From an uncultured Candidatus Saccharibacteria bacterium (GTDB taxonomy: Bacteria; Patescibacteriota; Minisyncoccia; Phycocordibacterales; PALSA-1337): a stretch of DNA of 64,000 nucleotides. The stretch spans positions 16,671-80,670 of the forward strand of contig CAYVEL010000001.1 of NCBI GenBank assembly GCA_964450345.1, given 5' to 3'. A program made the position numbers and the translations under genes. The notes beneath the pieces were generated by a model, which had not been told where the DNA came from, searched no databases, and saw only the letters and a list, made by a program, of their open reading frames with translations. This document shows positions 31,421 to 52,384 of this stretch, one piece after another. Position 1 is the first letter of the stretch, and each line of letters opens with the position of its first letter.

Positions 31421-31670
31421 GTTTTATATCTATAATATCGAATCCTCCTTCTTTAATAGCCTCCATAATCTTATCTTTCTTTAAAATAACAGTATTTTTT
31501 TCAGCGCTTCTAATATTTAGGAGTGCTGTTTTTTGTTTTATGTTTATTTTGTCTGAATCTATATTTATCTTACAGATTTTTCTGAGAATAGCAGATAAAC
31601 CTATTCTGTTTATGTCAGCATCGTCTGTTATCTTCCTATACTTCTTTAGAAACCCCTCTATTTTCTGCAT
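31410..31670 (-). CDS. small protein downstream of dnaN, DUF721/DciA-like (tentative)
   Basis: 86 aa; LLNIRSAEKNTVILKKDKIMEAI...IIDIKL resembles DUF721 core; position after dnaN; start overlaps dnaN stop. Confidence 0.3.
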   Translation of the reverse strand: MQKIEGFLKKYRKITDDADINRIGLSAILRKICKINIDSDKINIKQKTALLNIRSAEKNTVILKKDKIMEAIKEGGFDIIDIKLSR

Positions 31671-32770
31671 TAGCGATTCATAGGCATTACCAAATAGAGA
31701 AAGCTAGTATCTCCATTACTTCTTAGGATAACAGGCCTCTGAGGTCCATTAAACGATAAATAGACACTGTCCGCATAAATAGATTGAAAAACATCTGATA
31801 AATATTTTTGATTGAAGTTCGCTGAGTAGTCCTCTCCTTCTACACTGGCACTTATTACGGTTTTATTCTCACCAACATCACTATTTTTTGTTGTCAGAGT
31901 AATTGTTTTATTTTTTACTGAAATAGATATGTTTGCTTGATTAAACTTATCTGTAAATAAAGTAGATACTTTTAAAGCATTTATCAAATCATGCTTTAGA
32001 GCCACAACTTCAGAAGATGTAGACTTCGGAATAATCTGTTTATAATCCGGGAATGAGCCGTTAATCAATCTTGAGACTAGATAAACACCTTCTTTTTCAA
32101 AGGTTATTTGGTTTTTATCAAAAGAAATATTAATATCCTGGTTTCCATTATCAAAAACCTTTATTATTTCGGGAACATTTTTAAAAGGTATTAACAAAGA
32201 AAGCTCTCCTTCTATGTCCACTGCCTTAAATCTCTTTTCTGATAATCTAAATGAATCTGTAGCAACAAACACTATATCGTTCTGGTCTTTATATATATAA
32301 ACACTAGAAAGTTCTGGTTTTATAGATGAAACAGAAGCTGAAAACCATACTGACTTAAAGCCAAGTGTTAATTCTTTAGAATTTATCTTAAAAGATGATC
32401 CTTCTGTAATTCTAGGGATAGCTGGGTAATCGTCTTTAGGATATGTCTTAATAACTGCATTGTTCTTATTTCCTTCTATTTTTAAATTACCATTATCTTC
32501 TTCTAGAATAATTGTTTTGTCGGCTGCTATACCTGATATATATGAATTAAAGATAGCTGAAGGAACTACCACCTCACCTTCTTTAATAACTTTTACTGGA
32601 ATATCGAGTTCTATTCCTATGTCTAGGTTTGTAGATTTAATCTTCAAAGAGTTTCCTGTCGCACTCAAATGTAAACCAGAGAGTATCGGTAGATTTAGAT
32701 TCTTACCGGTCATACGTTCACTTAGGCTAATCGCCTCTTGAAGTTTTTCTCTAACGCATTCGATTTTCAT
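31670..32770 (-). CDS. dnaN: DNA polymerase III beta sliding clamp
   Basis: 366 aa, MKIECVREKLQEAISLSERMTGKNLNLPILSGLHL N-terminus, three-domain length, downstream of dnaA. Confidence 0.9.
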   Translation of the reverse strand: MKIECVREKLQEAISLSERMTGKNLNLPILSGLHLSATGNSLKIKSTNLDIGIELDIPVKVIKEGEVVVPSAIFNSYISGIAADKTIILEEDNGNLKIEGNKNNAVIKTYPKDDYPAIPRITEGSSFKINSKELTLGFKSVWFSASVSSIKPELSSVYIYKDQNDIVFVATDSFRLSEKRFKAVDIEGELSLLIPFKNVPEIIKVFDNGNQDINISFDKNQITFEKEGVYLVSRLINGSFPDYKQIIPKSTSSEVVALKHDLINALKVSTLFTDKFNQANISISVKNKTITLTTKNSDVGENKTVISASVEGEDYSANFNQKYLSDVFQSIYADSVYLSFNGPQRPVILRSNGDTSFLYLVMPMNR

Positions 32771-33007: not shown

Positions 33008-34363
33008 TTAAACATTCATCATCGCTCTAAGCTGGCCGATCTCCTTACTTAACTCCGTATCTGTTTTAATATCGTTTTTAATTTTCTCACAAGAATGGAT
33101 GACTGTAGTATGGTCTCTTCCACCAAGCTTCTCTCCTATTGAAGGGAATGAAACATTAAAATCTTCTCTTAGAATATACATAACTACTTGGCGAGGTTTA
33201 ACCACTTCTTTCTTTCTGGTTTTATCGTAAATACTTTCTTCTTCTATATTATAAAACTGAGCAACGGTCTTAACAATCTCTTTAATAGCAACGTTTTTCC
33301 TAGGTCTAGCTGTGTCTCTTACGATGTTTTTAATATCAATAATACTCAAAGGGCGACCCTTAATCTGTGTTTGTATGACAATACTATTTAAAACACCTTC
33401 AAGCTCTCTTATATTCCCTGTAACTGTTTCAGAAAGGTAATCAATAACATCTTGGTTTAATATTAGATTGTAAGTTTTTGCCTTTGATTGAAGGATGGCT
33501 GATCTAGACTGAGCGTCTGGTGAAGGAATATCAATAATCATTCCAGCTCCGAATCTAGACTTTAGACGGTCTTCCAGATTCTGAATATAGTTAGGATGTT
33601 TATCTGAAGAAAAGATAATCTGCTTAAAATTGTCGTATAAATGATTAAACAAATGGAAAAGCTCTTCCTGGAATTTATCCTTTCCAGAGAAAAATTGAAT
33701 ATCATCTACAATTAAAAGATCATATTTTCTATACTTTTCTTTAAACTGGGCCATTCTACTGTTTTGAATAGCATCCCAACACTCAGTTCCGAATTTTTCA
33801 GAGGTTAAATAGAATACTTTCTTATTTGGAAAATGTTTTTTAACATGATTACCTATAGCTTGGGTTAAATGGGTCTTCCCTATTCCGGTATTACCGTAAA
33901 TAAATAGAGGGTTATAAACTTTTCCTGGATTTTTAATAACAGCTTGAGCTGCTGCGTGGGCAATTTCATTAAAAGGACCAATAACAAAGTTTTCAAATGT
34001 ATATCTAGGGTTTAGATTGTCTTCTTTATTAACATAAAGCTCGTTTAGAGGTAGTTCATTATACATATGAGCCTTTATCGCTGCAGCAGATGTTTCGCAC
34101 TTCTTGGGGTCTTTTTGCTCGTTGATGACATATTCTAGACCACGAACAGCATCATTGTGATTTCTTAGTATTCTTAAGATTGAATTATGAAACTTCTTCC
34201 AAAGCCACTCTTTTATGAATGTGCTTGGAACATTCAGATAAACTATACCGTCTTCTACTCTGTGGATGTTGGTGTCTTTAAACCACATCAAATAATCACT
34301 CTTAGAAAGGGTTAGTTCTATTTCTGTGCGAACATTTTCCCATAGTTTATTGTGGTCGTGCAT
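33008..34363 (-). CDS. dnaA: chromosomal replication initiator DnaA
   Basis: Walker A IYGNTGIGKTHL, box VII, C-terminal DnaA signature GGRDHTTVIHS; start set at MHDHNKLWENV (ORF-track 501-aa version runs into rpmH and DnaA-box cluster). Confidence 0.9.
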   Translation of the reverse strand: MHDHNKLWENVRTEIELTLSKSDYLMWFKDTNIHRVEDGIVYLNVPSTFIKEWLWKKFHNSILRILRNHNDAVRGLEYVINEQKDPKKCETSAAAIKAHMYNELPLNELYVNKEDNLNPRYTFENFVIGPFNEIAHAAAQAVIKNPGKVYNPLFIYGNTGIGKTHLTQAIGNHVKKHFPNKKVFYLTSEKFGTECWDAIQNSRMAQFKEKYRKYDLLIVDDIQFFSGKDKFQEELFHLFNHLYDNFKQIIFSSDKHPNYIQNLEDRLKSRFGAGMIIDIPSPDAQSRSAILQSKAKTYNLILNQDVIDYLSETVTGNIRELEGVLNSIVIQTQIKGRPLSIIDIKNIVRDTARPRKNVAIKEIVKTVAQFYNIEEESIYDKTRKKEVVKPRQVVMYILREDFNVSFPSIGEKLGGRDHTTVIHSCEKIKNDIKTDTELSKEIGQLRAMMNV

Positions 34364-34511
34364 TTGTTTTGTAAGTTGGAAATAATTATATACCTGTGGA
34401 TAGAATTTAGAACTTGTGGAATACTTAAAAATATGTTGAGAAGCTGTTAATAACCTGTGGACACAAGAAAATTTGATTTTTTGCAAATAATGTTCTAAAC
34501 TCTTATTCATC
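34364..34511. promoter_or_regulatory. dnaA upstream region with three DnaA-box-like TGTGGA elements
   Basis: TGTGGATAG, TGTGGAATA, TGTGGACAC within ~90 bp. Confidence 0.55.
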
Positions 34512-34658
34512 ATGTCGTTTACTTATAGTCCAAACAAAAAGAAGAGAGCACAGGCACACGGTTTTCTAATGAGAACAAGAACAAGCAAGGGTAGAAAGGT
34601 TCTCGCAAGAAGACGTGCTAAGGGAAGAAAGTCCCTTACTGTTTCTGCTGGTAGATAA
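34512..34658 (+). CDS. rpmH: 50S ribosomal protein L34 (not in ORF track, <60 aa)
   Basis: translation [48 protein letters not shown]; TAATG overlap with rnpA. Confidence 0.85.
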
Positions 34659-35016: not shown

Positions 35017-35751
35017 ATGTACACAACATATATATATAAACCACTATACAATGGCTTTATTTACTTAATGGACGCTTTTCCTTGGATGGATGCCGGTATT
35101 GCTATTATAGTATTTACTTTAATTATTAAGTTTGTTCTATTCCCTCTTTCTAAGAAAGCTATCGTTACGCAGTTAATGTTAAAGAAGGTGGAACCTGAAA
35201 TTAAGGCAATTAAAGATAAGAATAAGGGTAATAACCAGGCTGTGGCCGTTGAAACAATGGCTCTTTATAAGAAATATGGAATAAATCCACTGGCGAATTT
35301 CTTTTTGTTACTTATTCAGCTACCTATTTTGTTTGCTTTATACTCTGTGTTTATGAAGGCTGGTTTACCTGATATAAAAATTGATTTTCTATATAGTTTC
35401 GTAAGTGTTCCTACTGTTAATATGAATTTTCTAGGATTTCTAGACATAGGAAAACCAAATGTCATTGCTGCTATCATTGCTTCTGTATGTCAGTATATTC
35501 AGATAAATATTTCATTACCTAAGATTGATAAGAAGAATTATGATCCTAGTGATATGTCACAGGCTATAGCAAAAGGAATGAATACCAATATGAAGTACTT
35601 CTTCCCTGTTATTATTCTTCTGATATCTATTAAACTTGCATCAGCTATCGCTTTATATTGGATTGTAAGTAGCTTGTTTATGATTGGTCAGGAGCTTTTG
35701 GTTAAGAGAAGACTAGAAAAGCAGTTAGCAGAGAATGGAAATTTAAAATAA
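35017..35751 (+). CDS. yidC: membrane protein insertase YidC/Oxa1 (short, monoderm type)
   Basis: polytopic; position after rnpA; 244 aa. Confidence 0.8.
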   Translation: MYTTYIYKPLYNGFIYLMDAFPWMDAGIAIIVFTLIIKFVLFPLSKKAIVTQLMLKKVEPEIKAIKDKNKGNNQAVAVETMALYKKYGINPLANFFLLLIQLPILFALYSVFMKAGLPDIKIDFLYSFVSVPTVNMNFLGFLDIGKPNVIAAIIASVCQYIQINISLPKIDKKNYDPSDMSQAIAKGMNTNMKYFFPVIILLISIKLASAIALYWIVSSLFMIGQELLVKRRLEKQLAENGNLK

Positions 35752-37089: not shown

Positions 37090-38115
37090 TTATTTTGTTG
37101 TCGATGCGGTATTAGTTTTTGTTGTCAGTATGTCTCGCATTCTTTTTGCGTCACTCGCAATCTTTTCTTCTATCGCCTTTTGAGTGAAAGCAACAATCTC
37201 ATCTTCAGCGTCTTTGATCGCTTTTATTTGTGCTGCGTCTAAGGCTTGAGATTGTGTGGCGTTTTCCATTTTTGCTTTTACCATATCGCTAAATCCGTTG
37301 TTCTTACTATTAAATGTTTCTAGTACTTGGGAAGCTAATTTTCCCTGATTTGAAGCATATGTTAGTTCAAGATTTGTAGAATTAATTGTTTGTAGAGCGA
37401 AGGTTTTTTGTGCGTCTAGTTGAGCATTGTAAGCATTTTGAAACAATTGAGAATTCAATTCAGTTAGTTGTTTTTCTATTTCTGTTGCTTTAGAGTAGTC
37501 GCCACTTTTTATTGCCGCTTCCTTCTCTGCTGCTAGACTGCTGTACTCTGTTTTTAGGGCATTGAAATCTTTATTGTAAGACTGAATATTTGAAATTAGC
37601 TGTGCTTGTGATGTAGAGAAATTACCTTCGTAATCATAGGCTTTTAGATATTGTGGCATTGCTAATGTGTCGAAATTCGCTTTGAAATTAACATACCTTG
37701 GGTCTATGTAGTAAAGAACTATGTAAGAACATAGAACCATTAATAGTCCGTATATAGCGTTCTGTACGTAGGCTCTTCCCTCAGATGTTCCACTGAATGA
37801 GTCTGTTGTGGCTAGTTTAAAACCTCCCCAAGATATCATGATTACTGCTAGAGCGATTCCAATTCCAATTCCTAATCTGTAAATCTGTACTAAGTAAGCC
37901 CCGAACTGGTCCTGTTTATATGAGGTCACATTTGTTCCGTCAGTACATGATCCATTGGTTACCTCCCCTGAATTTCCTGCACATGGTAGTGGTTCTAGAA
38001 GTTTATATTCTATTCTAGAGTCTGTTGTCTCTGCTTTAACATCACTACTGATGAAAGCTACAGACATTAAAATCATAAAGCTTAGAATTATGATTGTATA
38101 TATATTTCTATTCAT
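37090..38115 (-). CDS. VirB2/TrbC-like pilin-domain protein fused to long coiled-coil
   Basis: signal peptide, then two closely spaced hydrophobic helices (LGIGIGIALAVIMISWGGF / AIYGLLMVLCSYIVLYYI) as in TrbC/VirB2, then ~200-aa Q/A/K-rich coiled-coil. Confidence 0.4.
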   Translation of the reverse strand: MNRNIYTIIILSFMILMSVAFISSDVKAETTDSRIEYKLLEPLPCAGNSGEVTNGSCTDGTNVTSYKQDQFGAYLVQIYRLGIGIGIALAVIMISWGGFKLATTDSFSGTSEGRAYVQNAIYGLLMVLCSYIVLYYIDPRYVNFKANFDTLAMPQYLKAYDYEGNFSTSQAQLISNIQSYNKDFNALKTEYSSLAAEKEAAIKSGDYSKATEIEKQLTELNSQLFQNAYNAQLDAQKTFALQTINSTNLELTYASNQGKLASQVLETFNSKNNGFSDMVKAKMENATQSQALDAAQIKAIKDAEDEIVAFTQKAIEEKIASDAKRMRDILTTKTNTASTTK

Positions 38116-38116
38116 T

Positions 38117-39133
38117 CTATTGGTTTAGATTAATCCCTACTCCAGCATGTGCTTCTTGTAATAGATGGCCAGAGTTATTAATAGTTACAGATACTTGAGT
38201 CTGTCCTGTGTCGCTGGTTTTTGGTTTTAGAACAATTATTTTTTTTGTTTTTAATTCTGGATATTCTGTATAACCTATATTCCAATTGTATGATAGAAGA
38301 TTATTTAGAAAATCATTTTTATTAAAATAGAAAGGCTCTGCTTCTACTGCTACCTCATTAGCCTTTATTGATAATAAATTCGGTATTGCTTTGTTCCACA
38401 TTGTTCCGAAAATTGGATTCTTTTCATATAAGATAACTTGTGATTCCATTGGTTCAAATACAAGAGATTCTGTTCCTGTCATACCATGGTCTGGAGAAGT
38501 TACTTCTACTGAGACCTCCATATCTCTTCCTAGAAAATTTCCTGGTACTGATACCGAGGACTTCCCTCTTCCTGATTGATCTTGCAAGACCTCAGAGTTC
38601 TTCTTCCATTTAAAGACTAGGTCTTTAGAAGGAATAGCCTTTCCTTCAACGATGAAAGATGGGACAGCCACTAATTCAATATTATTTTGCTGAGTATATA
38701 GTGGAATTCCTTTATAAAATGGTGGAACTGTAGAGTTTGATGACCATAGAAGACTAACGTCTGCTGGTGTAATTTTATATACTCTTTCTACGTTCACACC
38801 TGCACTTGTTGTAATTGATATTTTTATTACACTAGTTTTTCCAGCTTGAGGAGCATTAAAAGTAAATTCTCTTAATCCTTTACCGCTCTTAATAAGCGCT
38901 CCGTTATTAAAGATTTTTACATCAGAGCTGTTTATGTCTAAGGGTGTGTAACTTGTAAGCTTAACAGTAACTAATTGCTCTGGTTTAGGAAGTTCTGGAT
39001 CAATATCTACCTGCAATGAGCCAGCTATACCTTGGTTTATATAGTCTGTTTCTGCTTTAGAGATTGAGAAATTTATGAAAAATAAAACAACTAAAGCTAT
39101 ATAAAAAAACGCTTTTTTATAGTTCGTTACCAT
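38117..39133 (-). CDS. secreted/anchored beta-rich protein of T4SS-like operon, unknown function
   Basis: N-terminal hydrophobic leader FFYIALVVLFFINFSISKA; no recognisable motif. Confidence 0.45.
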   Translation of the reverse strand: MVTNYKKAFFYIALVVLFFINFSISKAETDYINQGIAGSLQVDIDPELPKPEQLVTVKLTSYTPLDINSSDVKIFNNGALIKSGKGLREFTFNAPQAGKTSVIKISITTSAGVNVERVYKITPADVSLLWSSNSTVPPFYKGIPLYTQQNNIELVAVPSFIVEGKAIPSKDLVFKWKKNSEVLQDQSGRGKSSVSVPGNFLGRDMEVSVEVTSPDHGMTGTESLVFEPMESQVILYEKNPIFGTMWNKAIPNLLSIKANEVAVEAEPFYFNKNDFLNNLLSYNWNIGYTEYPELKTKKIIVLKPKTSDTGQTQVSVTINNSGHLLQEAHAGVGINLNQ

Positions 39134-39202: not shown

Positions 39203-39544
39203 CTATTTAGGCGATATGCTAGGTTTAATAGAAGCGGTTGTTGGTATTTTAACACCAAGCTTGTCTTCAGCTTTCACAAACATAATTATGGCTATTATTC
39301 CTACTGTTGTTTCTGGTAGAACTTCTAATACTGGTATCAGACCAATAGTAATAGACGCTAGATTTGTTGCTAATTTTTTTCCACTGAATACAGAGATTCC
39401 TTTTAGATAGAAAAATACATTTAGAGCCACCCATCCGATTGCGGTTACAATACTTCCTATTGCGGGTATCCAGTTTAATAAATCCATTATCACCGCTACG
39501 GTCACTAGTCCTCCAATAGCCATTTTACTCAGACGGTCATTCAT
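39203..39544 (-). CDS. small polytopic membrane protein (3 TM) of T4SS-like operon
   Basis: hydrophobic segments; stop overlaps nothing, start overlaps VirB4 stop (39544). Confidence 0.45.
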   Translation of the reverse strand: MNDRLSKMAIGGLVTVAVIMDLLNWIPAIGSIVTAIGWVALNVFFYLKGISVFSGKKLATNLASITIGLIPVLEVLPETTVGIIAIIMFVKAEDKLGVKIPTTASIKPSISPK

Positions 39545-41358
39545 TATCTTGATGATTGAGCGAAATCGTCCTTCGCCTGTTTAATAGCTAACATCTGTTC
39601 TGGTTTTGTAGATATTAGCTGATCTTCCGCATAAGAAGCCTCGATTTTAATAGCTACGTGCTTCATTCCTACGAAGAAGATGCCCTCTCCTACTCCTGAT
39701 TCTAGAAGTAAGTATTTCTCTTCGTCTGTTAGGTTAAAGATTGTTTGAATCTTATCTACTGCGGTCGGAGATTGTTTAAGTAGAATCTGAATAGAAGAGT
39801 TTGTAACAATAGGTGTTCCATATGGTGACTTTAGGAAGTCGTCCACGTCTTGTGTGATTGTAGCCATTCCTAGCCAGTACTTTCTACCTCTCTTAGCAAT
39901 CATAAGAAGGAATGAAGCTGTATCTTCAGTTTTCATCATCCACCATGCCTCGTCGATAACAAGTAATCTCTTCTTTTTAACTCTCTTAACAGCATTCCAG
40001 ATGTGGTGTGTAACTATATACATGGCTACAGGTTTAAGCTCCTCCTCCATGTCTTTAATACAGAAGACTACGAATTTCTTGTTTATATCAATGTTTGAAG
40101 GTTTGTTTACGAAACCAGACCATGTACCACGAGTGAACTTAGATAGTCTTTGTACTAATGATTCAGCACCCTCCATTCCAGCTAGTACAAGTTCAAAGTC
40201 AGAAAGTAGAGGTGGTTCTATATTAACGAAATCAGATTCAGGTGTAATATCCTTAAGAGCGTAAGTCTCTGTTATTGCTCGGTCGATGATAGCATCTTCT
40301 TCCTTTGTTAGACCTCCGAACATAATTCTAAATAGTCCTACAAGGTTAATGATGTGTGATCTTAGAACATCTGATCTAGCTTCGTCTGGAGCAGGAGCTG
40401 GTAAGTCGAATGGATTAATATGGTTATCAGAGTTAAGAGATATGTTTATGAATCTACCTCCTGTAGTTTCTGCCATGTCTCTATACTCACCTTCTGGATC
40501 CACTACTATTACCTCTGTATCGAACATCAGTGTTCTAAGGATTTCTAGTTTTGTACAATATGATTTACCAGAACCAGATTTAGCGAATGTTACAGAGTTG
40601 TAGTTTTCTAGACTGAATCTGTCGAATAGAACAAGGCTGGAATTGTGTCTGTTTATACCATATAGAATACCTTTTTCGTCAGTAAGGTCGAATGATACGA
40701 ATGGGAATATGCTAGATAGAGGTGAAGAGTTTAGTTTTGAATGAATATTTAGTTCATCACTACAGATAGGTAGAATACTCTTATAACCTTGTTCTTGCTG
40801 GAATAAAGCAGGTTTAACATACACTAGTTTAGCCTCAAGAATAGACTTAATTTCAGACTCCATTTTATCAAGTTCAGATTCGTTGCTTGCGTATAGTGTT
40901 ATGTAAACTCCTACTTCAAACATTTTTTCTTGAGCCTGCATTAAACTGTCTCTAAGATTTTCTAGATCTTGGTATGCAGTGTCTAGCATTGGGTCACGAA
41001 CCAGTCCCCTCTTCTCTCTGTCACCTATCTGGCTTTGTACCTCAGCTACTTTCTTTTGGAAATTTTTAAGTATCGAAGCTGTGTCGATTGGATGTATAAA
41101 AATAGAAACGTTAAAAACTTTATCTAGATTTATTATTGGAGCGAACCAGCTATCTGTTAGGAATCTTGGGTATGAGATTACGAAGAAAGTTCTAGCTACT
41201 TTTTCTCCGAGATGTAATTCCTTTGGTGTTATCTTTAAAGCTGAAGGAGCAATAATGTCCTGCAGTTCAAGCATTCCAGAATTATATATTTCATCAGGTA
41301 AAACAGCTGTTATGGCTGTGTTATTTTTTTTACCAAATAAGTTTGAAAAAAATCCCAT
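39544..41358 (-). CDS. VirB4/TrbE/TraE-family conjugation-type ATPase (ATPase portion)
   Basis: Walker A FAKSGSGKSY; Walker B RLLVIDEAWWMM; ...RKYWLGMATITQDVDDF... arrangement typical of VirB4. Confidence 0.8.
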   Translation of the reverse strand: MGFFSNLFGKKNNTAITAVLPDEIYNSGMLELQDIIAPSALKITPKELHLGEKVARTFFVISYPRFLTDSWFAPIINLDKVFNVSIFIHPIDTASILKNFQKKVAEVQSQIGDREKRGLVRDPMLDTAYQDLENLRDSLMQAQEKMFEVGVYITLYASNESELDKMESEIKSILEAKLVYVKPALFQQEQGYKSILPICSDELNIHSKLNSSPLSSIFPFVSFDLTDEKGILYGINRHNSSLVLFDRFSLENYNSVTFAKSGSGKSYCTKLEILRTLMFDTEVIVVDPEGEYRDMAETTGGRFINISLNSDNHINPFDLPAPAPDEARSDVLRSHIINLVGLFRIMFGGLTKEEDAIIDRAITETYALKDITPESDFVNIEPPLLSDFELVLAGMEGAESLVQRLSKFTRGTWSGFVNKPSNIDINKKFVVFCIKDMEEELKPVAMYIVTHHIWNAVKRVKKKRLLVIDEAWWMMKTEDTASFLLMIAKRGRKYWLGMATITQDVDDFLKSPYGTPIVTNSSIQILLKQSPTAVDKIQTIFNLTDEEKYLLLESGVGEGIFFVGMKHVAIKIEASYAEDQLISTKPEQMLAIKQAKDDFAQSSR

Positions 41359-41362
41359 ATTA

Positions 41363-41998
41363 TTATAATTGAATTGGCTTCTCTGTTTCGCCGGGGTTAA
41401 ATATCTTATAGAACAGTTCTACTACTTCTTCTGTTCCTAGTTGAGCAACTTTAAGTCCGCTTCTTGTAAGTCCTTGCACAACCACGTTTGCTCTTTGTTC
41501 TAGCTGACTTCTATTCTCTTCAAAAATGTCTATTTTTGCACTAGCGTCATCTTTATTAGAGTGGGGAAACATCTTAAGAATTGAGCTACCACCCTCTCCT
41601 AATGCTGGTGGTGTATAAGGAACTATAATAAAGAAACTCTTACTCATGATGCTTGTCTGTTCGGTGAAGGCCTTTATGAATTCAACATATTCTCTAACTT
41701 GAATTTTCATTAATTCAGAAGTTTGCTCTTTATAACGCTCTTCAAGTAGTGCTAAATATGGCCTAATATCTAGTTTTTTTGACTGAACTAGTATCTGTAC
41801 AGAAAAATCTAAAGAGTTTAGAAAATTTTGGAATTGTGAGATTATACCGTTTTGTTCGTCAGTAGATTTAAGAGCAAAGTTTAGAGAAGATCCCATAAGA
41901 ACTAATCTCATGGCACCATCTTTAAGTATTACAATACCATCTCTAACTTCTTTGATGGGTACGAAACTTTGTGAGCTGTTAACGTTTACTGTAGACAT
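41363..41998 (-). CDS. VirB4 N-terminal-like domain protein (CagE_TrbE_VirB-like), separate ORF 4 nt upstream of ATPase ORF
   Basis: VPIKEVRDGIVILKDGAMRLVLMGSSLNFALKSTDEQNGIISQFQNFLNSL pattern like N-terminal region of VirB4 proteins. Confidence 0.4.
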   Translation of the reverse strand: MSTVNVNSSQSFVPIKEVRDGIVILKDGAMRLVLMGSSLNFALKSTDEQNGIISQFQNFLNSLDFSVQILVQSKKLDIRPYLALLEERYKEQTSELMKIQVREYVEFIKAFTEQTSIMSKSFFIIVPYTPPALGEGGSSILKMFPHSNKDDASAKIDIFEENRSQLEQRANVVVQGLTRSGLKVAQLGTEEVVELFYKIFNPGETEKPIQL

Positions 41999-42438
41999 TA
42001 TCTTGTTTGGTTTTTATTTTGATCTTTATTTATTCCTTCGTGTATATCTAGACTCCAAGCAAGGTCTCTTAGCTTGCTTTCAGAAAGTCTAGGTACATTT
42101 AATGGATTTGATGAACTTATATTTCCCACTGATTTAACTGGCGTTTTAACTACTTTGTCTACTTTCTTCCAAAGATATAATTTGCTTCCTTTGTAATAAT
42201 TGAATGCTGCTTCTAGAGTAAAAATCATGGGTCTCTTATTTACCTGATAGAAGGCTATAGCAAAAGAAAAAGCTACTACAAATATTATCAAAGGTAATGA
42301 TATTATTTTGTAAGGTATAAATAAATATAATATAAAAGATAAACCAGCACCTCCTGCTAAGTATATTCCTTGCTTAAGGGTAAAATAACTAAAAAGCTTA
42401 TCCTCTACTTCTATGAATTGAGGAACCTGATAGTTCAT
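41998..42438 (-). CDS. VirB3-like small membrane protein (two TM hairpin)
   Basis: 146 aa, hairpin GIYLAGGAGLSFILYLFIPY / ISLPLIIFVVAFSFAIAFY, located immediately upstream of VirB4 genes. Confidence 0.4.
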   Translation of the reverse strand: MNYQVPQFIEVEDKLFSYFTLKQGIYLAGGAGLSFILYLFIPYKIISLPLIIFVVAFSFAIAFYQVNKRPMIFTLEAAFNYYKGSKLYLWKKVDKVVKTPVKSVGNISSSNPLNVPRLSESKLRDLAWSLDIHEGINKDQNKNQTR

Positions 42439-42452
42439 GAGTATATTTTACA

Positions 42453-43049
42453 CTAATTTAATGGTTCGCGATACGGATCAACTGTGTAATTTGTGTTTTT
42501 AACTGTACTTACTGTGGATTCCTTCAGATTTGATTCCACAACAGTTAGATTATGTTCCGTTTGATTTGCTATAGGGGTAACTATCGGAGCACTATTTATA
42601 GGTGTTTCTATTGTTTTAACAGGAGTTTGGGTTGGTGTTGTTGCGGTATTTACTGGAGTATTATTTATTACAGGGGCTACTGGTGCTTGGGTAGTATTTG
42701 GGTCTTTTGCCAAATTTGGTATTTCTGCGTCTGTTTTCTCACCCTCACCCATTTCGTAGTTGTAAGACATTAGAATTCTAGTTTTAAGAGGTTCTAGAAT
42801 CGCTGTATTAATGTCGGGGAGCATTTTAATAACGGTCTCCTCATCTACTTCTACTGATTCTATTATGTTTCCAACTAATTCAGACTTCTGAATATTTCCA
42901 TACACATAATTCTTTATAATCGCAATTAAGTTTCCTATCTGATTTATGTTTAAGTTGAATTTTTCTCCAACCTTAACAACGGTGTCATTAAATTCACTAG
43001 ACACTAAGTATTGTATTACTTCTGGTTTTATTATAGTTCTTGTATCCAT
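42453..43049 (-). CDS. hypothetical soluble protein with Thr/Pro/Val-rich C-terminus
   Basis: ORF in operon; no family assigned. Confidence 0.4.
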   Translation of the reverse strand: MDTRTIIKPEVIQYLVSSEFNDTVVKVGEKFNLNINQIGNLIAIIKNYVYGNIQKSELVGNIIESVEVDEETVIKMLPDINTAILEPLKTRILMSYNYEMGEGEKTDAEIPNLAKDPNTTQAPVAPVINNTPVNTATTPTQTPVKTIETPINSAPIVTPIANQTEHNLTVVESNLKESTVSTVKNTNYTVDPYREPLN

Positions 43050-43055
43050 ATTTTT

Positions 43056-45188
43056 TTAAATTCCCCAGTTTGCCTTATTTTTTGGATCTGAGACGTACTG
43101 ATATCCTGGTATTGGAACAGGTGGATTTCCAGCTTCAAATGCTGCTAACTGAGTACCTATGTCTTTAGCTTGCTCGGTACCACCTATTGCCTGCTCTAGT
43201 TTCTTTAATGAATTAGTATCAAGTAATTTAGCAATCTTAGCTTCCTTGTAGTATGGTTTTCCATTAGAGTCATTTGTAAATAATAGATCTCTTAACTCTT
43301 CTCCTTCTAGTGCTTTGAAGTTGTCGACTATTTCTTTATGTGGTTTACCGCTTACACCAGATAAGCCCTCAGCAATACCCTTGATTCTAGCTTCTTGTGC
43401 AGCAACAAAATCCTTGTAATCTGTCTTCTCGTCTTTTTCTTTATTATTAAAGTATTTCTTACCTATAATAGCTGCTAGTGTAGGGTTATCCTTAACATCA
43501 CTTAACTTAATTTCAGAACGTTCTTTTTCTGATAATGCACCAATTCTATCTGATAGACCCTTACTTAGTTTATCCATCTCAGATTGAATTCCATTATTTT
43601 CAGCTGTTTGATATGCAGCTAAGAAGTCTTTAGCGGTCTCTTTTGCGGCATTAATATTCTCAGCGCGCTCTCTATCGTTTTTAATATTTTTCTCTAGTTC
43701 TGCTTCAGACTTAGAATCTTTATATATTCCCTTCTGTTCGTAAGATTTCTTTAATGAGTCAGCAATAGGTCTAACTGTTTCAGCAAAAGCACCATTGTAT
43801 TTTGTTGCGCTGTCGATTTTTCCAGATATAGTCTGGTTTACAGCTCTAGAAGCACCTTTTGTTAATAATGCATTAGTAAATGATTTTTTATCTGTTGCTG
43901 CCTTTCCAAATCTTGTCTTAGCTAAGTCTGCCATAATACCTGTACCGCCCGCAGAATTTTCAAGTCTTGTAGCGAATTTCTGACCCGCTGCTTGGCCTGT
44001 TTCACTAGCAAGGGTTCCGAGGCTACGATTAACAAATCTAGCATTGTTACCCATACTGAATCTTTCTTTACCAGACTCTGCCATTTTTATAATTCTATCT
44101 CCACCCCACTCTCCTAGTGACGTACCTTTCTTTAGTGCTGCCATATAGAAACCCATCACTATTGCATATGTAACTATTGTAGAAACTAGTTCTCTTATTA
44201 CTTTTTCGAATTCTGATCCACTACTCTTTCCTGTGATTAGAGCTAATTGTTTTGATAATGCACTGTCTGTTCCGGATCCTACTAGTATTGCTAGACCTAC
44301 GTAAAGTAGAAGCATGAACATTGGAGCAAATAGAGCCGCATTTATAAATTTATTCCAAAGACTTCTTCCTTCTTTTGTAAGATCCCCAAGGAATTCTAAG
44401 TTTATGAAATTAAATGCAAGTACTGGGCTAGCAGCTAACATTCCAATCAATACTAATGTTCTAATCATGAATAGTGCTGCACCTGCAAAAAATAATACGG
44501 CTGTAATTAATTGTATTGAACCATTGAAAATTGCTAAGGTGTATTGCTGGAAACCTGTAGATAGAATTTTTGCAGCAGACCAACCACCAGAAGACTTTAA
44601 TGCGTCACCATTCATCTTTGTTAAGTTCATTAGCACATCAGATAAACCTCCACTAAAAGTGGAGTTGGCAGGGATAATTGCATTATATATACCTAATGCG
44701 AACATATTTGTGGCATCTATTATTAATTTCACTATAACGAAGCTGAAGTTAATAAAAAAGCCGGCAATTATAATGCCAATAATAAGTTCCCCGACCTGAC
44801 TCATTTTTGCCTTACCAATGATAACTTTAATTGAAGTAAATAAGAGCAAGAATATAAAGAACATTGATATAACATCTCTTATTACTACCCACGCCTGCCC
44901 TATTCCACTCATTCCATTTATTATCGTAGAGATTCTAAGACTGAAATCTATAGCCATGTTAAGAGCATAACCAGCTATTGAAAGTATGAAAGAAGTTATT
45001 GCTAAATATAAACCTAGTATAAACTGTATTAGTGCATCTGGTCTGAAAAATGTTGTCCAACTGACTTCTGTGGCTTGACTGGTAGCTGCTATAGCAGAAT
45101 TCGCAAAGAAAAATACAGCTAAAATAGCTATTGAAGTTAAAGCTATTTTAATTGATAGGTTTTTCTTATTAATAATTCTGCTAAACAT
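43056..45188 (-). CDS. VirB6/TrbL-like large polytopic membrane protein with long hydrophilic C-terminal domain
   Basis: signal-like N-terminus, >=6 hydrophobic helices in first ~380 aa, then charged coiled-coil-rich region ending in NPPVPIPGYQY. Confidence 0.45.
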   Translation of the reverse strand: MFSRIINKKNLSIKIALTSIAILAVFFFANSAIAATSQATEVSWTTFFRPDALIQFILGLYLAITSFILSIAGYALNMAIDFSLRISTIINGMSGIGQAWVVIRDVISMFFIFLLLFTSIKVIIGKAKMSQVGELIIGIIIAGFFINFSFVIVKLIIDATNMFALGIYNAIIPANSTFSGGLSDVLMNLTKMNGDALKSSGGWSAAKILSTGFQQYTLAIFNGSIQLITAVLFFAGAALFMIRTLVLIGMLAASPVLAFNFINLEFLGDLTKEGRSLWNKFINAALFAPMFMLLLYVGLAILVGSGTDSALSKQLALITGKSSGSEFEKVIRELVSTIVTYAIVMGFYMAALKKGTSLGEWGGDRIIKMAESGKERFSMGNNARFVNRSLGTLASETGQAAGQKFATRLENSAGGTGIMADLAKTRFGKAATDKKSFTNALLTKGASRAVNQTISGKIDSATKYNGAFAETVRPIADSLKKSYEQKGIYKDSKSEAELEKNIKNDRERAENINAAKETAKDFLAAYQTAENNGIQSEMDKLSKGLSDRIGALSEKERSEIKLSDVKDNPTLAAIIGKKYFNNKEKDEKTDYKDFVAAQEARIKGIAEGLSGVSGKPHKEIVDNFKALEGEELRDLLFTNDSNGKPYYKEAKIAKLLDTNSLKKLEQAIGGTEQAKDIGTQLAAFEAGNPPVPIPGYQYVSDPKNKANWGI

Positions 45189-45231: not shown

Positions 45232-46758
45232 TTAATTCTGTAAACAAGCCGAATTGTAATTTGAAAGCAGTCTTCTATATCCGATTATTTTATCTGTTAC
45301 TTCTTTCGATAATGCTTGGGCTTTAGTTACATCGTTTGGTGAATGTAGTGAATATGAGAATGATGTAGCTTGCTGAGCAATATACTTAAAGTCTTCAATA
45401 GTCTTCTTTGAATCTACTTGAACGTAATAATTATCTATCTGATCCATTAGTGCGGCTGTTGAATTATAAGATGCGCTAATTTGTGTGAAGTATGTAGATA
45501 TCTCGTTATCTAAAGTAGATTTTATCTGAGAGTATACAGTGTTGTAGTTTAGAGCTCTTGTTTTACAATTTTCTAATATAGTAAGAGCGTTTTCATAGTC
45601 TGATTTTATAGCAAATAGAGAGTTATACATTTGCATGTATTCATTGTAGTATTTCTCCTCACCTGCCTTAATCATATCTAAGAATTCGTACATCGACTCT
45701 TTGTTTGCGTACGTAGATTCATTTAACTGCTGTTCTTCTAATTGAGCACCTCTACTATTCCAGTAGTTATTTTGATCAGAAGTACCACTACCGCTTACTG
45801 AAGAAACTCCGGCAGTAACGACTTGTTGTATTAATTGTGATACAGCTGCATTTATAATTTCGTCGAATTCATCAGCTAATTCTAATTGTCTGAAACCACT
45901 ACCTAGAGATGTAGAAAGGGTATCGTTAACAACTGCTCCTGGTGTTGTGATAGAACAGTCTGAAGCTGATCTTGTTGTTGCTGCTGAGCTGCTAGATGTT
46001 ATTGGACTTATGTAAGATGTTGCTCCTGTAGAACTGTTTTTACATTTCTCAATTGATAAGAAACCTTTTCCTTGTCCTAGTTCATTATTTTTCTTAACAA
46101 TTTTATTAGCTACTCTAGCATCAAGTTCTGTTTTTGCGGTTAGGAATGCTCCGTAAGTATTATTTTGAGGATATTGTGATACCTGAATAAAATTACTCCA
46201 TCCTCCTCCCTGTTCGAATGAGCCACCTAATGATTTTACATTTTGTCCGTTTATACTGATGTTATTTGGTATGTTCTGAATATTATTAACAACCTGACTC
46301 AATGTACAAGAAACTTTTCTCTTGAATGGTGAATAAGATAGCTGTAATGCTAGACGAATATCTATACCCATTGAGCTACATAGAAAGTTTAGGTCTGGGT
46401 CGTTTTCAATAAATGAACCAATTTGCTCATCTATCATGTCAGTGAAGAATTGACTTGGATTTGATAGGAATGTTGGACTGCCTTTGAAACCGGAGTTTAT
46501 CCAGTCAACAATGCTTTGGGTCATGTACTTAAGCATCATCTTCATTGCTGCTGTACCTATAGAGTTTAGTGTTATTGGAGTACACTGACCAAACATGGAC
46601 ATCACACCACAAGTCTTTTTATCGTGTGCTGAACCTGTTGGTATGCTTTGTGCTGCTTGGGCGTATATTATTGTCGGCGATGCTGTAAAACCTAAAATGC
46701 TTACGAGCATGGTAATCGCAAAAAGTTTTTTTGTGATTGAATTACTAAAATATTTCAT
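45232..46758 (-). CDS. secreted Cys-containing protein of T4SS-like operon, unknown function
   Basis: signal peptide KLFAITMLVSILGFTASPTIIYAQA; 508 aa. Confidence 0.45.
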   Translation of the reverse strand: MKYFSNSITKKLFAITMLVSILGFTASPTIIYAQAAQSIPTGSAHDKKTCGVMSMFGQCTPITLNSIGTAAMKMMLKYMTQSIVDWINSGFKGSPTFLSNPSQFFTDMIDEQIGSFIENDPDLNFLCSSMGIDIRLALQLSYSPFKRKVSCTLSQVVNNIQNIPNNISINGQNVKSLGGSFEQGGGWSNFIQVSQYPQNNTYGAFLTAKTELDARVANKIVKKNNELGQGKGFLSIEKCKNSSTGATSYISPITSSSSAATTRSASDCSITTPGAVVNDTLSTSLGSGFRQLELADEFDEIINAAVSQLIQQVVTAGVSSVSGSGTSDQNNYWNSRGAQLEEQQLNESTYANKESMYEFLDMIKAGEEKYYNEYMQMYNSLFAIKSDYENALTILENCKTRALNYNTVYSQIKSTLDNEISTYFTQISASYNSTAALMDQIDNYYVQVDSKKTIEDFKYIAQQATSFSYSLHSPNDVTKAQALSKEVTDKIIGYRRLLSNYNSACLQN

Positions 46759-47735
46759 ATATTTTTATACCAAAAAAATCCGGCATCTGTTGTTTTAAAA
46801 CTAATGTTTTTACTGAATAATTTCTTAGCTATTTCATTTAAAATTCCGTTCTGTTTTTCTGTTATCGCCCCCTGATTTTTCATAGCGGTCAGTGCTTTAA
46901 GGGGATCTTTATCTAAGGCACTTAATTTAACCATCGACTGTCTATTTTCATAAAGATTATTAAGGAAATCTACATGTGAAGATACTAATGATTCAGGAAC
47001 TGTGACAGCGAGTACATCCCTCTCCATTCTAGAGTATATACTGATAGCATTTTTTGCTGCAGATGAAAAAGCAATGACATCGTTTTCAGAATTCATTACA
47101 TTGGGAAATGGATTTTTTATATATTCGTTTTGGTATTTAATATATATTTGAGCTAGTATATTTCCGTATATTTGGAAAGATAACTCCGAATCAGGTATTG
47201 ATTTTACGGAAGATTTTTTATACATCTCTACTGGTATAGAAGCGCTATTTACTTCTACGCTGTAAAGTAATTCATTAATTAAATCTTGTTGACTTGCTTT
47301 ATCTCCAGATAAATTAGCCTGTTTTAATTCAATAAATTTAGCGAAAAAGTTTCTTGAGAATTGTTCGGTGTCTGTTAAGTTTTCAGATTCTTTATTTGTG
47401 CTAGATGCTGTTTTTGAATCCGAAACTACTTTGTCATTTGGTCCTTTTTTAAGTGGATCTCTGTTTGCTTGGACTTCATCATAGTCACTGGTTCCATCTC
47501 CATCTGTATCTACGAGTTTTTTATCAGTACCACGGACATCTTCTTCCCAATCTTTAAGTCCATCTCCGTCAGTATCAACAGAATCTGATTCTGTTTGTAT
47601 TAATGATGAACCCGCAAGAATTTGTGTATTGGTATAAGAGTATTCTTTCTGTCTAGAAATCAATACGGTAATAGCTACTAGTACAATTACTATCGAGAAA
47701 ATAATAGAAAATGTAATTTTTTTGTTAATTTTCAT
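46755..47735 (-). CDS. membrane-anchored protein with thrombospondin type-3-like Ca-binding repeats; first gene of operon
   Basis: N-terminal TM; DTDGDGLKDWEED...DTDGDGTSDYDE DxDxDG repeats. Confidence 0.5.
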   Translation of the reverse strand: MKINKKITFSIIFSIVIVLVAITVLISRQKEYSYTNTQILAGSSLIQTESDSVDTDGDGLKDWEEDVRGTDKKLVDTDGDGTSDYDEVQANRDPLKKGPNDKVVSDSKTASSTNKESENLTDTEQFSRNFFAKFIELKQANLSGDKASQQDLINELLYSVEVNSASIPVEMYKKSSVKSIPDSELSFQIYGNILAQIYIKYQNEYIKNPFPNVMNSENDVIAFSSAAKNAISIYSRMERDVLAVTVPESLVSSHVDFLNNLYENRQSMVKLSALDKDPLKALTAMKNQGAITEKQNGILNEIAKKLFSKNISFKTTDAGFFWYKNI

Positions 47736-51292: not shown

Positions 51293-52384
51293 ATGAAATT
51301 ATATTCTAATTCTACAGTAAAAAATAATAAAATTATTAGAGGTTTTCTGTCCCTTGTAGTTTTATCTGCTGTCTCTATTCCTACCACCGCTTCTGCTTCG
51401 GTGTTTTCTATTTTTGGTGATGTTTTTACTAATAAATCAGTAGGTGCTGCACAGATGTCATTAAATTCTCAGAACATACAGTTATTAGAGGCACCAATAA
51501 ACGCAGATCCTCTAGTTTTAACTAAGGAGGCTGATATTGTTATGACTAATTCGTCAGTACTAGATTCTGAAGCGGGTCCATCGGGTTCTAGTGCGGATGT
51601 GTTAGAGGCTAAGAGTATAAATGGACAGATTTCAGTATATACCGTTAAGAAAGGCGATAATATATCTAGTATTGCTAAATTATATGGTGTTTCAGTTAAT
51701 ACTATTCTTTGGGCAAATAACTTATCTAAGGGCGTTGCCTTAAAAGAGGGACAAGATCTAATTATCTTGCCTATTTCTGGTATAAACCATGTTGTTAAGA
51801 ACGGAGAGACTCTTTCTGGAATCGTTAAGAAGTATGGTGCTGATATGGATGAAGTTTTAGCTTATAACGATTTAACCGTTAATTCTGTTTTAAAGTTGGG
51901 AGATGAGATTTTGATGCCAGACGTTGATATCGCAGAGCCTACTGCCGTAGCTTCTAAAACAAATTCTTCAACAGCTGGTACATCTAGATATCTTGGTGGA
52001 AGTGGTCCTTATTATCCTGGATATTATGCAATGCCTATATACGGTGCTCATAAGACACAAGATACTCATGGATGGAATGGTATAGATTTCGGTGCTCCAA
52101 TAGGAACTTATATCTATGCTGCTGCTGATGGTGTTGTGACTGTTAGTACAATGAATGGAGGATGGAATAAGGGTTATGGTAACTATGTGGTTATTAATCA
52201 TCCAAATGGAACTCAGACTCTGTATGGTCATGCTACAGCTGTATTCGTAAAGTATGGTGACTCAGTGAAAAAGGGTCAGGTTATCGCATCGGTCGGTTCT
52301 ACTGGTAAGTCTACTGGTCCTCACCTACACTTTGAAGTTAGAGGAGCTGCAAACCCATTTAGTAAGAAGTATTTAGGATACTAA
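51293..52384 (+). CDS. LysM-LysM-M23 peptidoglycan endopeptidase
   Basis: two LysM (YTVKKGDNISSIAKLYGVSVNTILWAN; HVVKNGETLSGIVKKYGADMDEVLAYN) + M23 HxxxD..HLHFEV. Confidence 0.9.
   Translation: MKLYSNSTVKNNKIIRGFLSLVVLSAVSIPTTASASVFSIFGDVFTNKSVGAAQMSLNSQNIQLLEAPINADPLVLTKEADIVMTNSSVLDSEAGPSGSSADVLEAKSINGQISVYTVKKGDNISSIAKLYGVSVNTILWANNLSKGVALKEGQDLIILPISGINHVVKNGETLSGIVKKYGADMDEVLAYNDLTVNSVLKLGDEILMPDVDIAEPTAVASKTNSSTAGTSRYLGGSGPYYPGYYAMPIYGAHKTQDTHGWNGIDFGAPIGTYIYAAADGVVTVSTMNGGWNKGYGNYVVINHPNGTQTLYGHATAVFVKYGDSVKKGQVIASVGSTGKSTGPHLHFEVRGAANPFSKKYLGY

Follow-up and report, generated by a model that had tools for sequence, protein, structure and literature searches.

Gene content of the locus

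The window, by which we mean the whole 64,000-nt stretch of DNA that was analyzed, carries two adjacent ORFs, here termed ORF1 and ORF2, within a cluster of T4SS genes. Conservation is given throughout for a comparison set of 80 related Patescibacteria species genomes, one locus each, all of them independent assemblies. The features of the locus are as follows:

31670-32770: dnaN (Pfam DNA_pol3_beta)
33008-34513, minus strand: dnaA (Pfam Bac_DnaA)
35017-35751: yidC (Pfam 60KD_IMP)
37090-39133, minus strand: two genes downstream of the pair (338 aa and 341 aa), both products with a signal or membrane-anchor segment at the N-terminus
39203-39544, minus strand: small membrane protein, 113 aa; its start codon shares 1 nt with the ORF2 stop codon
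39544-41358, minus strand: ORF2, short VirB4 ATPase, 604 aa, ATG start
39949-39966, minus strand: Walker B motif LLVIDE, ORF2 aa 465-470 (motif search)
40561-40584, minus strand: Walker A motif AKSGSGKS, ORF2 aa 259-266 (motif search)
41359-41362, minus strand: intercistronic spacer 'taat', 4 nt, after tandem TAA TAA stops
41363-41998, minus strand: ORF1, TrsD-like, 211 aa, ATG start; corresponding to the first half of the VirB4/TraC N-terminal domain, here detached
41998-42438, minus strand: PrgI-family (VirB3-like) membrane protein, 146 aa (Pfam PrgI, E = 2.4e-7, above cut-off)
42453-43049, minus strand: protein of unknown role within the operon, 198 aa, poorly conserved (detected in 22/80 loci)
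43056-45188, minus strand: polytopic membrane protein, candidate VirB6-like, 710 aa, with multiple hydrophobic segments

An earlier, sequence-only reading of this DNA had described two ORFs separated by 4 nt and together ~815 aa long, and the ORF listing of the window returns them at the same coordinates (211 + 604 = 815 aa), in different frames. That reading left their strand unstated; both lie on the minus strand. Read on that strand, the junction runs ...CAA TTA TAA TAA T ATG GGA..., with the ORF1 stop codon (TAA, 41365-41363) directly followed by a second in-frame TAA, and with the ORF2 ATG (41358-41356) in the +1 frame relative to ORF1. Upstream of this ATG the ORF2 frame stays open for 20 codons, as far as a TAG at 41421-41419, and direct reading of the junction found no conserved sequence in these 20 codons. 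A Shine-Dalgarno-like motif was not found at the usual distance upstream of the ORF2 ATG.

The gene of the PrgI-family protein, which has a hydrophobic hairpin, ends on the ORF1 start codon, its stop overlapping that codon by 1 nt (a gap of -1 nt), and it precedes the ORF1 homologue in 78 of the 80 loci. Farther upstream, the gene of the 710-aa polytopic protein is kept on the same strand in 67/80 loci; the protein has no Pfam match, and its position and topology make it a candidate VirB6-like channel subunit. On the other side of the pair, the 113-aa protein gave no significant family match in Pfam or NCBIfam, while the genes of the 338-aa and 341-aa proteins are conserved in 61-71 of 80 loci, the latter protein with a weak match to Pfam T4SS_pilin (E = 0.0024, under its cut-off). 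dnaA lies ~1.3 kb from the end of the T4SS cluster, and the positions of dnaA, dnaN and yidC indicate that the cluster adjoins the replication-origin region. Among the 28 ORFs scanned, none has a relaxase or VirD4 (coupling protein) domain.

Assignment of ORF1 and ORF2 to VirB4

ORF2 matches the VirB4-like model of the CD1110 family (NF045971) over model positions 179-734 of 752 (E = 5.5e-114; 382 bits, above the curated cut-off of 325) and the VirB4_plasma model (NF045975) over positions 270-893, and it scores under the cut-offs of TIGR00929 (113 vs 643) and of the TraC-F-type model (170 vs 567). Its Pfam matches are P-loop_TraG (E = 3.6e-27), AAA_10 and DUF87, and the VirB4 C-terminal domain of PDB 4AG5 aligns to ORF2 aa 225-581 (E = 6.5e-40). 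Judged by these scores, the similarity of ORF2 to VirB4 is far beyond chance, and the 4AG5 alignment, together with the AKSGSGKS and LLVIDE motifs, bears out the earlier proposal that ORF2 carries the Walker A/B ATPase core.

ORF1 is predicted to be soluble, having no hydrophobic segments, and its matches to full-length VirB4 models are confined to their N-terminal part: positions 3-111 of 752 in NF045971 (E = 1.8e-5) and positions 101-233 of 894 in NF045975 (E = 3.5e-12). The alignment of both ORFs to full-length VirB4 models, which the sequence-only reading had recommended, thus yields complementary, non-overlapping matches, and the similarity of 41363-41998 to the VirB4 N-terminus, whose lack that reading would have counted against itself, is found with both models. 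Its assignment of ORF1 to the VirB4 N-terminal region stands, but its CagE_TrbE_VirB label does not carry over, the weak Pfam matches to CagE_TrbE_VirB and TraC_F_IV being located in ORF2 and not in ORF1.

ORF2 comprises the second half of the N-terminal domain (~aa 1-224) followed by a RecA-like C-terminal ATPase domain, so that the VirB4 N-terminal domain is incomplete on the ORF2 chain and divided between the two genes. Because ORF2 retains ~224 aa ahead of the ATPase domain that aligns with 4AG5, the split point is placed by these alignments inside the VirB4/TraC N-terminal domain and not at the boundary between N-terminal domain and ATPase. The earlier description of an N-terminal-domain ORF followed by an ATPase ORF therefore holds for the split itself, but not for its boundary.

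Other searches with ORF1 returned less. The local Pfam library gave zero matches at E up to 1; PF26593 is assigned to all ORF1 homologues in the precomputed annotation of the protein database, while the local Pfam copy reported no match to it. A PDB sequence search with the single ORF1 sequence found zero matches, and one with a 53-sequence ORF1 profile found chance matches only (E > 0.2) and no VirB4 chain, so that the link to solved VirB4 structures is one of fold comparison. The link between ORF1 and VirB4 as a whole draws on three sources: matches to NCBIfam models, the fused homologues and comparison of folds.

The fused homologues belong to the same family and are colinear with ORF1-ORF2, but form one polypeptide. 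In Candidatus Colwellbacteria, three MAGs encode a protein of 797 aa in which ORF1 is followed by ORF2: aa 8-214 correspond to ORF1 (41% identity) and aa 225-796 to ORF2 residues 27-597 (54% identity), without the conserved 26-residue N-terminal peptide of stand-alone ORF2. In the 858-aa protein of Myxococcus stipitatus plasmid pYRE, aa 17-211 match the ORF1 profile with a probability of 96.8%, and a single Pfam TraC_F_IV N-terminal domain (aa 44-398) spans the split point. At the level of sequence, these rare colinear fusions confirm that ORF1 and ORF2 are the halves of one protein.

Full-length VirB4/TraC/TrwK proteins (the CD1110 family, R388 TrwK and F TraC) have the Walker A/B C-terminal domain in common with ORF2 and the fold of the N-terminal domain in common with the split pair, and their association with VirB3-like membrane proteins, and with VirB6-like ones if the 710-aa candidate is counted, is likewise shared with the cluster in the window. 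They carry N-terminal domain and ATPase on one chain of ~750-900 aa, whereas in the window the first ~210 residues are a separate gene product.

Conservation of the split and competing explanations

The sequence-only reading had suggested looking for a conserved split in relatives, and the split is present in 80/80 of the Patescibacteria species loci. In every one of them the ORF1 and ORF2 homologues are adjacent, usually no more than 10 nt apart, the first being closed by a stop codon and the second opening with an ATG of its own at residue 1. The commonest spacer is +4 nt (14 loci), alongside -4 (11 loci), +1 (11) and +5 (9), within a full range of -4 to +507 nt; the relative frames 0, +1 and +2 occur at 16, 34 and 30 loci (n = 80), and all three stop codons are used as ORF1 terminators. 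At two of the 80 loci an extra gene stands between the homologues, namely 23S_rRNA_IVP at locus L056 and a remnant of it at L037.

Homologue lengths follow the same pattern. The best 120 homologues of ORF1 are all stand-alone proteins of 209-242 aa, those of ORF2 all stand-alone proteins of 598-622 aa, and full VirB4 length is reached by only 1 of the best 150 representatives (50%-identity clusters). The closest homologues are all in Patescibacteria MAGs, the nearest in Paceibacteria and Taylorbacteria MAGs. Identity across species is 61-69% for ORF1, with many invariant columns, and 73-81% for ORF2, whose stand-alone homologues share a conserved N-terminal peptide, M-[SG]-[IF]-[FL]-[SD]-K-L-F-G-K-K. 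Across the 80 loci no other gene of the cluster is as well conserved as these two, and on these values both are under strong purifying selection.

Three explanations compete with a pair of separate genes whose products rebuild a VirB4-like subunit. The one that survives best holds that ORF1 derives from the VirB4 N-terminus but is now an independent accessory factor (an adaptor, chaperone or assembly factor) that does not rebuild the VirB4 fold with ORF2. In Gracilibacteria, most TrsD homologues are reported not to neighbor virB4 (Quinonero-Coronel et al., 2025; PMC12102498), so that a function for which TrsD need not be made alongside VirB4 is conceivable. We nevertheless consider this explanation unlikely, since ORF1 supplies exactly the segment that is missing from ORF2, the fusions run colinear with the pair, one Pfam model of the N-terminal domain reaching across the two parts, the genes are neighbors at all 80 loci, mostly within 10 nt, and no other pair in the cluster is as conserved.

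Production of a fused full-length VirB4, by programmed +1 ribosomal frameshifting (a programmed frameshift was one option of the sequence-only reading) or by readthrough of the stop, would suit the +1 frame of ORF2 and the 20 open codons ahead of its ATG, but ORF1 is closed by tandem stop codons, the relation between the frames varies among the relatives (+1 in 34, +2 in 30, and in 16 the same frame with stop codons in between), spacers extend to 507 nt, an unrelated gene is inserted at two loci, and each of the 80 ORF2 homologues has its own ATG aligned to residue 1. Varied frames, long spacers and inserted genes make a conserved slippery motif impossible, and we regard this option as excluded for practical purposes. 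An equally negligible chance attaches to one ~815-codon virB4 having been broken by an indel that arose in sequencing or assembly, or by a recent frameshift (pseudogenization), as that reading had also allowed: the two ORFs are indeed only 4 nt apart, in different frames and of a summed length normal for VirB4, but ORF1 closes with tandem TAA TAA, the conserved ORF2 ATG opens a conserved N-terminal peptide, the 20 preceding codons of its frame lack conserved sequence, both halves are strongly conserved, the best 120 homologues of each are all of split length, and the same split recurs in all 80 related species, in independent assemblies with differing spacers and frames. Of the options that reading had left standing, the genuine two-gene arrangement is the one that the 80 species genomes and the homologue lengths favor.

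Relation to TrsD systems and proposed function

An arrangement of this kind has been described. Quinonero-Coronel et al. (2025; PMC12102498) catalogued TrsD beside virB4 across Patescibacteria, in clusters often near dnaA, and found no T4SS component more abundant than TrsD beside virB4 in this group; they describe it as a remote homologue of the VirB4 N-terminus without an assigned function. They also list the T4SS genes, including the TrsD homologue, as essential in Candidatus Southlakia epibionticum, the one genetically tractable relative. As in the window, the Patescibacteria pair consists of a ~210-aa gene directly upstream of a ~600-aa virB4, preceded by a PrgI/VirB3-like gene, and the T4SS is chromosomal, near dnaA and without a relaxase, as is the cluster here among the 28 ORFs scanned. 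Nothing substantive distinguishes the window from that catalogue, of which it is one more instance. The Patescibacteria TrsD calls in the literature use the CONJScan TrsD HMM, while our TrsD assignment relies on the description in PMC12102498. For the statement that TrsD is homologous to the VirB4 N-terminus, that paper cites Guglielmini et al. (2014); the word 'TrsD' is absent from the main text of the latter (PMC4027160). A paper on the pELF plasmid (PMC13492992) was considered as a parallel and set aside, the TraC/TraD pair there being unrelated.

In plasmid pSK41 of S. aureus, trsC (a small membrane protein), trsD (227 aa) and trsE (672 aa) follow the same order as in the window, an order found in other plasmids of monoderm bacteria as well. 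ORF2 aligns with pSK41 TrsE from residue 20/14 onward (E = 6e-29), starting at the very N-terminus, so that the break point is equivalent. For the TrsD of pSK41/pGO1 (MPF_FATA, pGO1 subclass), sequence similarity to ORF1 is marginal: ORF1 scores 20.5 bits (E = 3.3e-4) against NF041427, the TrsD/TraD family of conjugative transfer proteins, and does not reach the cut-off of 200, and when the ORF1 family was compared by hhalign with TrsD of pSK41, a single sequence, the probability was a non-significant 2.9%. Homology of ORF1 to the staphylococcal TrsD is thus remote at best. The setting is nonetheless of the TrsD type, with a soluble protein of ~200-230 aa between a VirB3-like gene and a short (~600-670 aa) VirB4. 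pSK41 itself is conjugative and encodes both a relaxase and a VirD4-like coupling protein, whereas the cluster in the window is chromosomal and has neither gene among the ORFs scanned.

Taken together, these comparisons lead us to read ORF1 and ORF2 as a genuine and widely conserved two-gene VirB4 of a chromosomal Patescibacteria (CPR) T4SS, in the arrangement already known as TrsD plus VirB4. We propose that they are separate, co-transcribed genes, in a cluster that resembles the MPF_FATA type of monoderm bacteria, and that their products rebuild a VirB4-like subunit of the T4SS; to this explanation as a whole we assign a probability of roughly 0.87. ORF1 would be the TrsD-like equivalent of the first ~210 residues of full-length VirB4, and ORF2 a short VirB4 that has the Walker A/B ATPase domain and, ahead of it, the second half of the N-terminal domain; each ORF is probably translated from its own ATG. 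The mode of ORF2 translation initiation is one that we infer: the gaps across the PrgI, ORF1, ORF2 and 113-aa genes are -1, +4 and -1 nt, a tight spacing that suggests translational coupling, which would give roughly equal amounts of product. The two products may be expected to associate non-covalently and so restore a whole VirB4-like subunit; docked on the PrgI/VirB3-like and VirB6-like membrane proteins, this subunit would energize the secretion apparatus. The colinear fusions and the known VirB4-VirB3 contacts argue for such rebuilding and docking.

It is doubtful, if conceivable, that the split is a selected feature of monoderm-type T4SSs and not a neutral fission, with the TrsD-like half binding the PrgI/VirB3-like anchor and then recruiting or releasing the ATPase. 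If so, a separable TrsD-like subunit would let Patescibacteria regulate the assembly of a secretion system essential for epibiotic life, and the N-terminal peptide of the stand-alone ATPase, which the Colwellbacteria fusion lacks, would be a docking element.

With the split already known, the present analysis is an incremental clarification and not a discovery. To the account in PMC12102498 it adds, from sequence comparison, that ORF2 lacks exactly the portion equivalent to TrsD and that rare re-fused forms exist. Seen as the first half of the N-terminal domain that the short VirB4 lacks, TrsD, a protein without an assigned function, would gain a concrete, testable role. For annotation, a short VirB4 with a ~210-aa 'hypothetical protein' upstream is not to be taken for a frameshifted pseudogene, and merging the TrsD-like gene and the short virB4 as a 'repair' would be wrong. 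This applies to Patescibacteria and to many plasmids of Bacillota and Actinomycetota; plasmids of Geobacillus and Miltoncostaea have the same order of genes, VirB3-like, then TrsD-like, then short VirB4.

A VirB4 encoded by two genes

In this Patescibacteria type IV secretion system (T4SS), VirB4 is encoded by two genes, for a TrsD-like protein and a short VirB4, an arrangement that is genuine, ancient and conserved and that has already been described in the literature. To this known picture we add small points: the exact complementarity of ORF1 and ORF2, a break within the N-terminal domain, rare and perhaps re-fused forms, and a conserved N-terminal peptide of the stand-alone ATPase. Both open reading frames are present, 4 nt apart, just as in the sequence-only reading; they lie on the minus strand, and motif searches located the Walker A/B ATPase core that it had assigned to ORF2:

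41363-41998 (-): ORF1, TrsD-like, 211 aa
39544-41358 (-): ORF2, short VirB4 ATPase, 604 aa
41281-41358 (-): ORF2 N-terminal region, aa 1-26, with a conserved peptide
ORF2 aa 259-266 (-): Walker A, AKSGSGKS
ORF2 aa 465-470 (-): Walker B, LLVIDE

At the junction (coding strand, ...CAA TTA TAA TAA T ATG GGA...), ORF1 terminates in two in-frame TAA codons back to back, with a 4-nt spacer between its stop codon and the ATG of ORF2; ORF2 is read in the +1 frame, and a TAG 20 codons before that ATG closes this frame.

A scan of species-representative genomes identified 80 Patescibacteria loci with homologues of ORF1 (61-69% identity) and ORF2 (73-81%). A stop codon ends the ORF1 homologue in every locus (TAA in 46, TGA in 18, TAG in 16), and all 80 ORF2 homologues start from an ATG of their own that aligns with residue 1. 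Spacers extend up to +507 nt, with +4 (14 loci), -4, an ATGA overlap (11), +1 (11) and +5 (9) the most frequent; the two homologues stand in relative frame 0 at 16 loci, +1 at 34 and +2 at 30. A complete gene for a 23S_rRNA_IVP four-helix bundle lies between the TrsD-like gene and virB4 at one locus (L056:911-1282), and a remnant of such a gene at another (L037:4686-5061), so that spacers reach ~500 nt and the two cistrons can be uncoupled. The best 120 homologues of each protein are likewise stand-alone (209-242 aa for ORF1, 598-622 aa for ORF2), and when ORF1 homologues are clustered at 50% identity, just one of the 150 best representatives has full VirB4 length.

Collectively, these data exclude the other explanations offered by the sequence-only reading, and of its three options leave the two-gene arrangement. 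Programmed frameshifting, and readthrough with it, is ruled out by the use of all three frames, by spacers of up to +507 nt and by the separate ATG in 80/80 loci, while a sequencing error or recent frameshift mutation is incompatible with a split found in all 80 loci and with the lengths of the stand-alone homologues. Across the 80 loci, no other gene of the entire cluster is conserved as well as ORF1 and ORF2, and ORF1 has many invariant columns in an alignment of 53 sequences; judged by these comparisons, both are strongly constrained.

Complementary halves and the place of the break

The proposal that VirB4 is split, with ORF1 as its N-terminal region, is borne out by complementary model matches and colinear fusions as well as by the 80/80 conserved split. 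ORF2 scores 382 bits against NCBIfam NF045971 (VirB4-like conjugal transfer ATPase, CD1110 family; curated cut-off 325 bits), covering only positions 179-734 of 752, and ORF1 matches positions 3-111. NF045975 gives the same pattern, with ORF1 on positions 101-233 and ORF2 on 270-893. The TrsD/TraD family model NF041427 matches ORF1 weakly (E = 3.3e-4, far under its cut-off), and by curated thresholds ORF1 falls outside that subfamily; it occupies the TrsD position and plausibly has the TrsD role. Precomputed protein-database annotation lists PF26593 for every ORF1 homologue among the best 120; ORF1 itself had no match in the local Pfam-A copy even at E up to 1.

The sole full-length representative is a 797-aa protein of Ca. 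Colwellbacteria, of the same length in three MAGs (P0206, P0271, P0272) and colinear with ORF1 then ORF2: its aa 8-214 align with ORF1 residues 9-207 (41% identity) and its aa 225-796 with ORF2 residues 27-597 (54%). Also colinear is an 858-aa fusion on the Myxococcus stipitatus plasmid pYRE (L083:3956-6532), in which the ORF1 profile falls on aa 17-211 and one TraC_F_IV model covers aa 44-398. At the level of sequence, these fused forms confirm that ORF1 and ORF2 are halves that belong together. Such single-polypeptide TrsD-VirB4 fusions, which may be ancestral or secondary re-fusions, are rare, known from Patescibacteria and a Myxococcota plasmid. In many homologues of ORF1 (P0140, P0156, P0164, P0169, P0187 and others) the C-terminus is extended by 100-230 residues, for a total of 296-443 aa.

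ORF2 residues 225-581 align with the known structure of the VirB4 C-terminal domain (4AG5), so ORF2 retains ~224 residues of the N-terminal domain; weak Pfam matches to TraC_F_IV and CagE_TrbE_VirB both fall in ORF2, at aa 118-199. Since TraC_F_IV also spans both halves of the Myxococcus fusion, these alignments place the break inside the N-terminal domain, bisecting it, and not between that domain and the ATPase. All 80 stand-alone ORF2 homologues share the N-terminal peptide M-[SG]-[IF]-[FL]-[SD]-K-L-F-G-K-K, which the Colwellbacteria fusion lacks, because its alignment begins at ORF2 residue 27; the peptide may have a role in docking or initiation that is particular to the split form.

Operon, assembly and known systems

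The operon encodes, in order, a 710-aa polytopic membrane protein, a 198-aa protein, a PrgI/VirB3-like protein (Pfam PrgI), ORF1, ORF2, a 113-aa membrane protein, and proteins of 338 and 341 aa, the last with a weak T4SS_pilin match. From the 710-aa to the 113-aa gene packing is tight (intergenic distances 6, 14, -1, 4 and -1 nt), with 1-nt stop/start overlaps at 41998 (PrgI/ORF1) and 39544 (ORF2/113-aa gene). No Shine-Dalgarno motif is recognisable at the usual distance for any gene of the operon, the upstream regions being just A/T-rich. The two cistrons would be translated separately, and because spacers are very short or overlapping and such motifs are lacking, coupling of the PrgI, ORF1, ORF2 and 113-aa genes by termination and reinitiation is suggested. 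VirB4 interacts with VirB3, which anchors it at the inner membrane (PMC12102498); the ORF1 and ORF2 products may join non-covalently to form a VirB4-like unit, with the PrgI/VirB3-like protein as its anchor.

The same order occurs in Staphylococcus aureus pSK41 (trsC, trsD of 227 aa, trsE of 672 aa), where ORF2 aligns with TrsE from the very N-terminus and the break point is therefore equivalent, and again on plasmids of Geobacillus and Miltoncostaea, where PrgI is followed by a homologue of ORF1 (318-337 aa; L082:3887-4843 and L084:3935-4948) and then by a DUF87 ATPase of ~640-660 aa. A survey of Patescibacteria T4SS (Quinonero-Coronel et al., 2025; PMC12102498) reported 2,272 TrsD homologues, 1,664 of them virB4-associated, listed the Ca. 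S. epibionticum homologue as essential, and described clusters usually without a relaxase and often near dnaA. The window cluster agrees with the TrsD + virB4 clusters of that survey in every respect tested, including proximity to dnaA; neither relaxase nor VirD4 was found among the window ORFs scanned.

Genomic surroundings

The cluster ends ~1.3 kb from three adjoining genes, which place it at the presumed replication origin:

31670-32770 (-): dnaN
33008-34513 (-): dnaA
35017-35751 (+): yidC

GC skew changes sign at about 33.5-34 kb, and G+C content is 35%. The remainder of the window encodes housekeeping functions, among them PolA, RuvB, PNPase, a class I aminoacyl-tRNA synthetase, a Mur ligase, a CCA-adding-type enzyme and a PilB-like T2SSE ATPase. 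This PilB/GspE-type ATPase, with an MshEN domain (23102-24769, +), indicates type IV pilus machinery. A LysM + Peptidase_M23 protein is encoded ~4 kb past the cluster (51293-52384, +); proteins of this type may act as VirB1-like cell-wall hydrolases in Patescibacteria (PMC12102498). A 1296-aa ORF (5544-9434, +) has only a weak alpha/beta-hydrolase match, and two genes lie upstream of the T4SS operon (45232-47735, -), one for a 508-aa protein without a family match, the other for a 326-aa protein that contains a bacterial TSP3 repeat.
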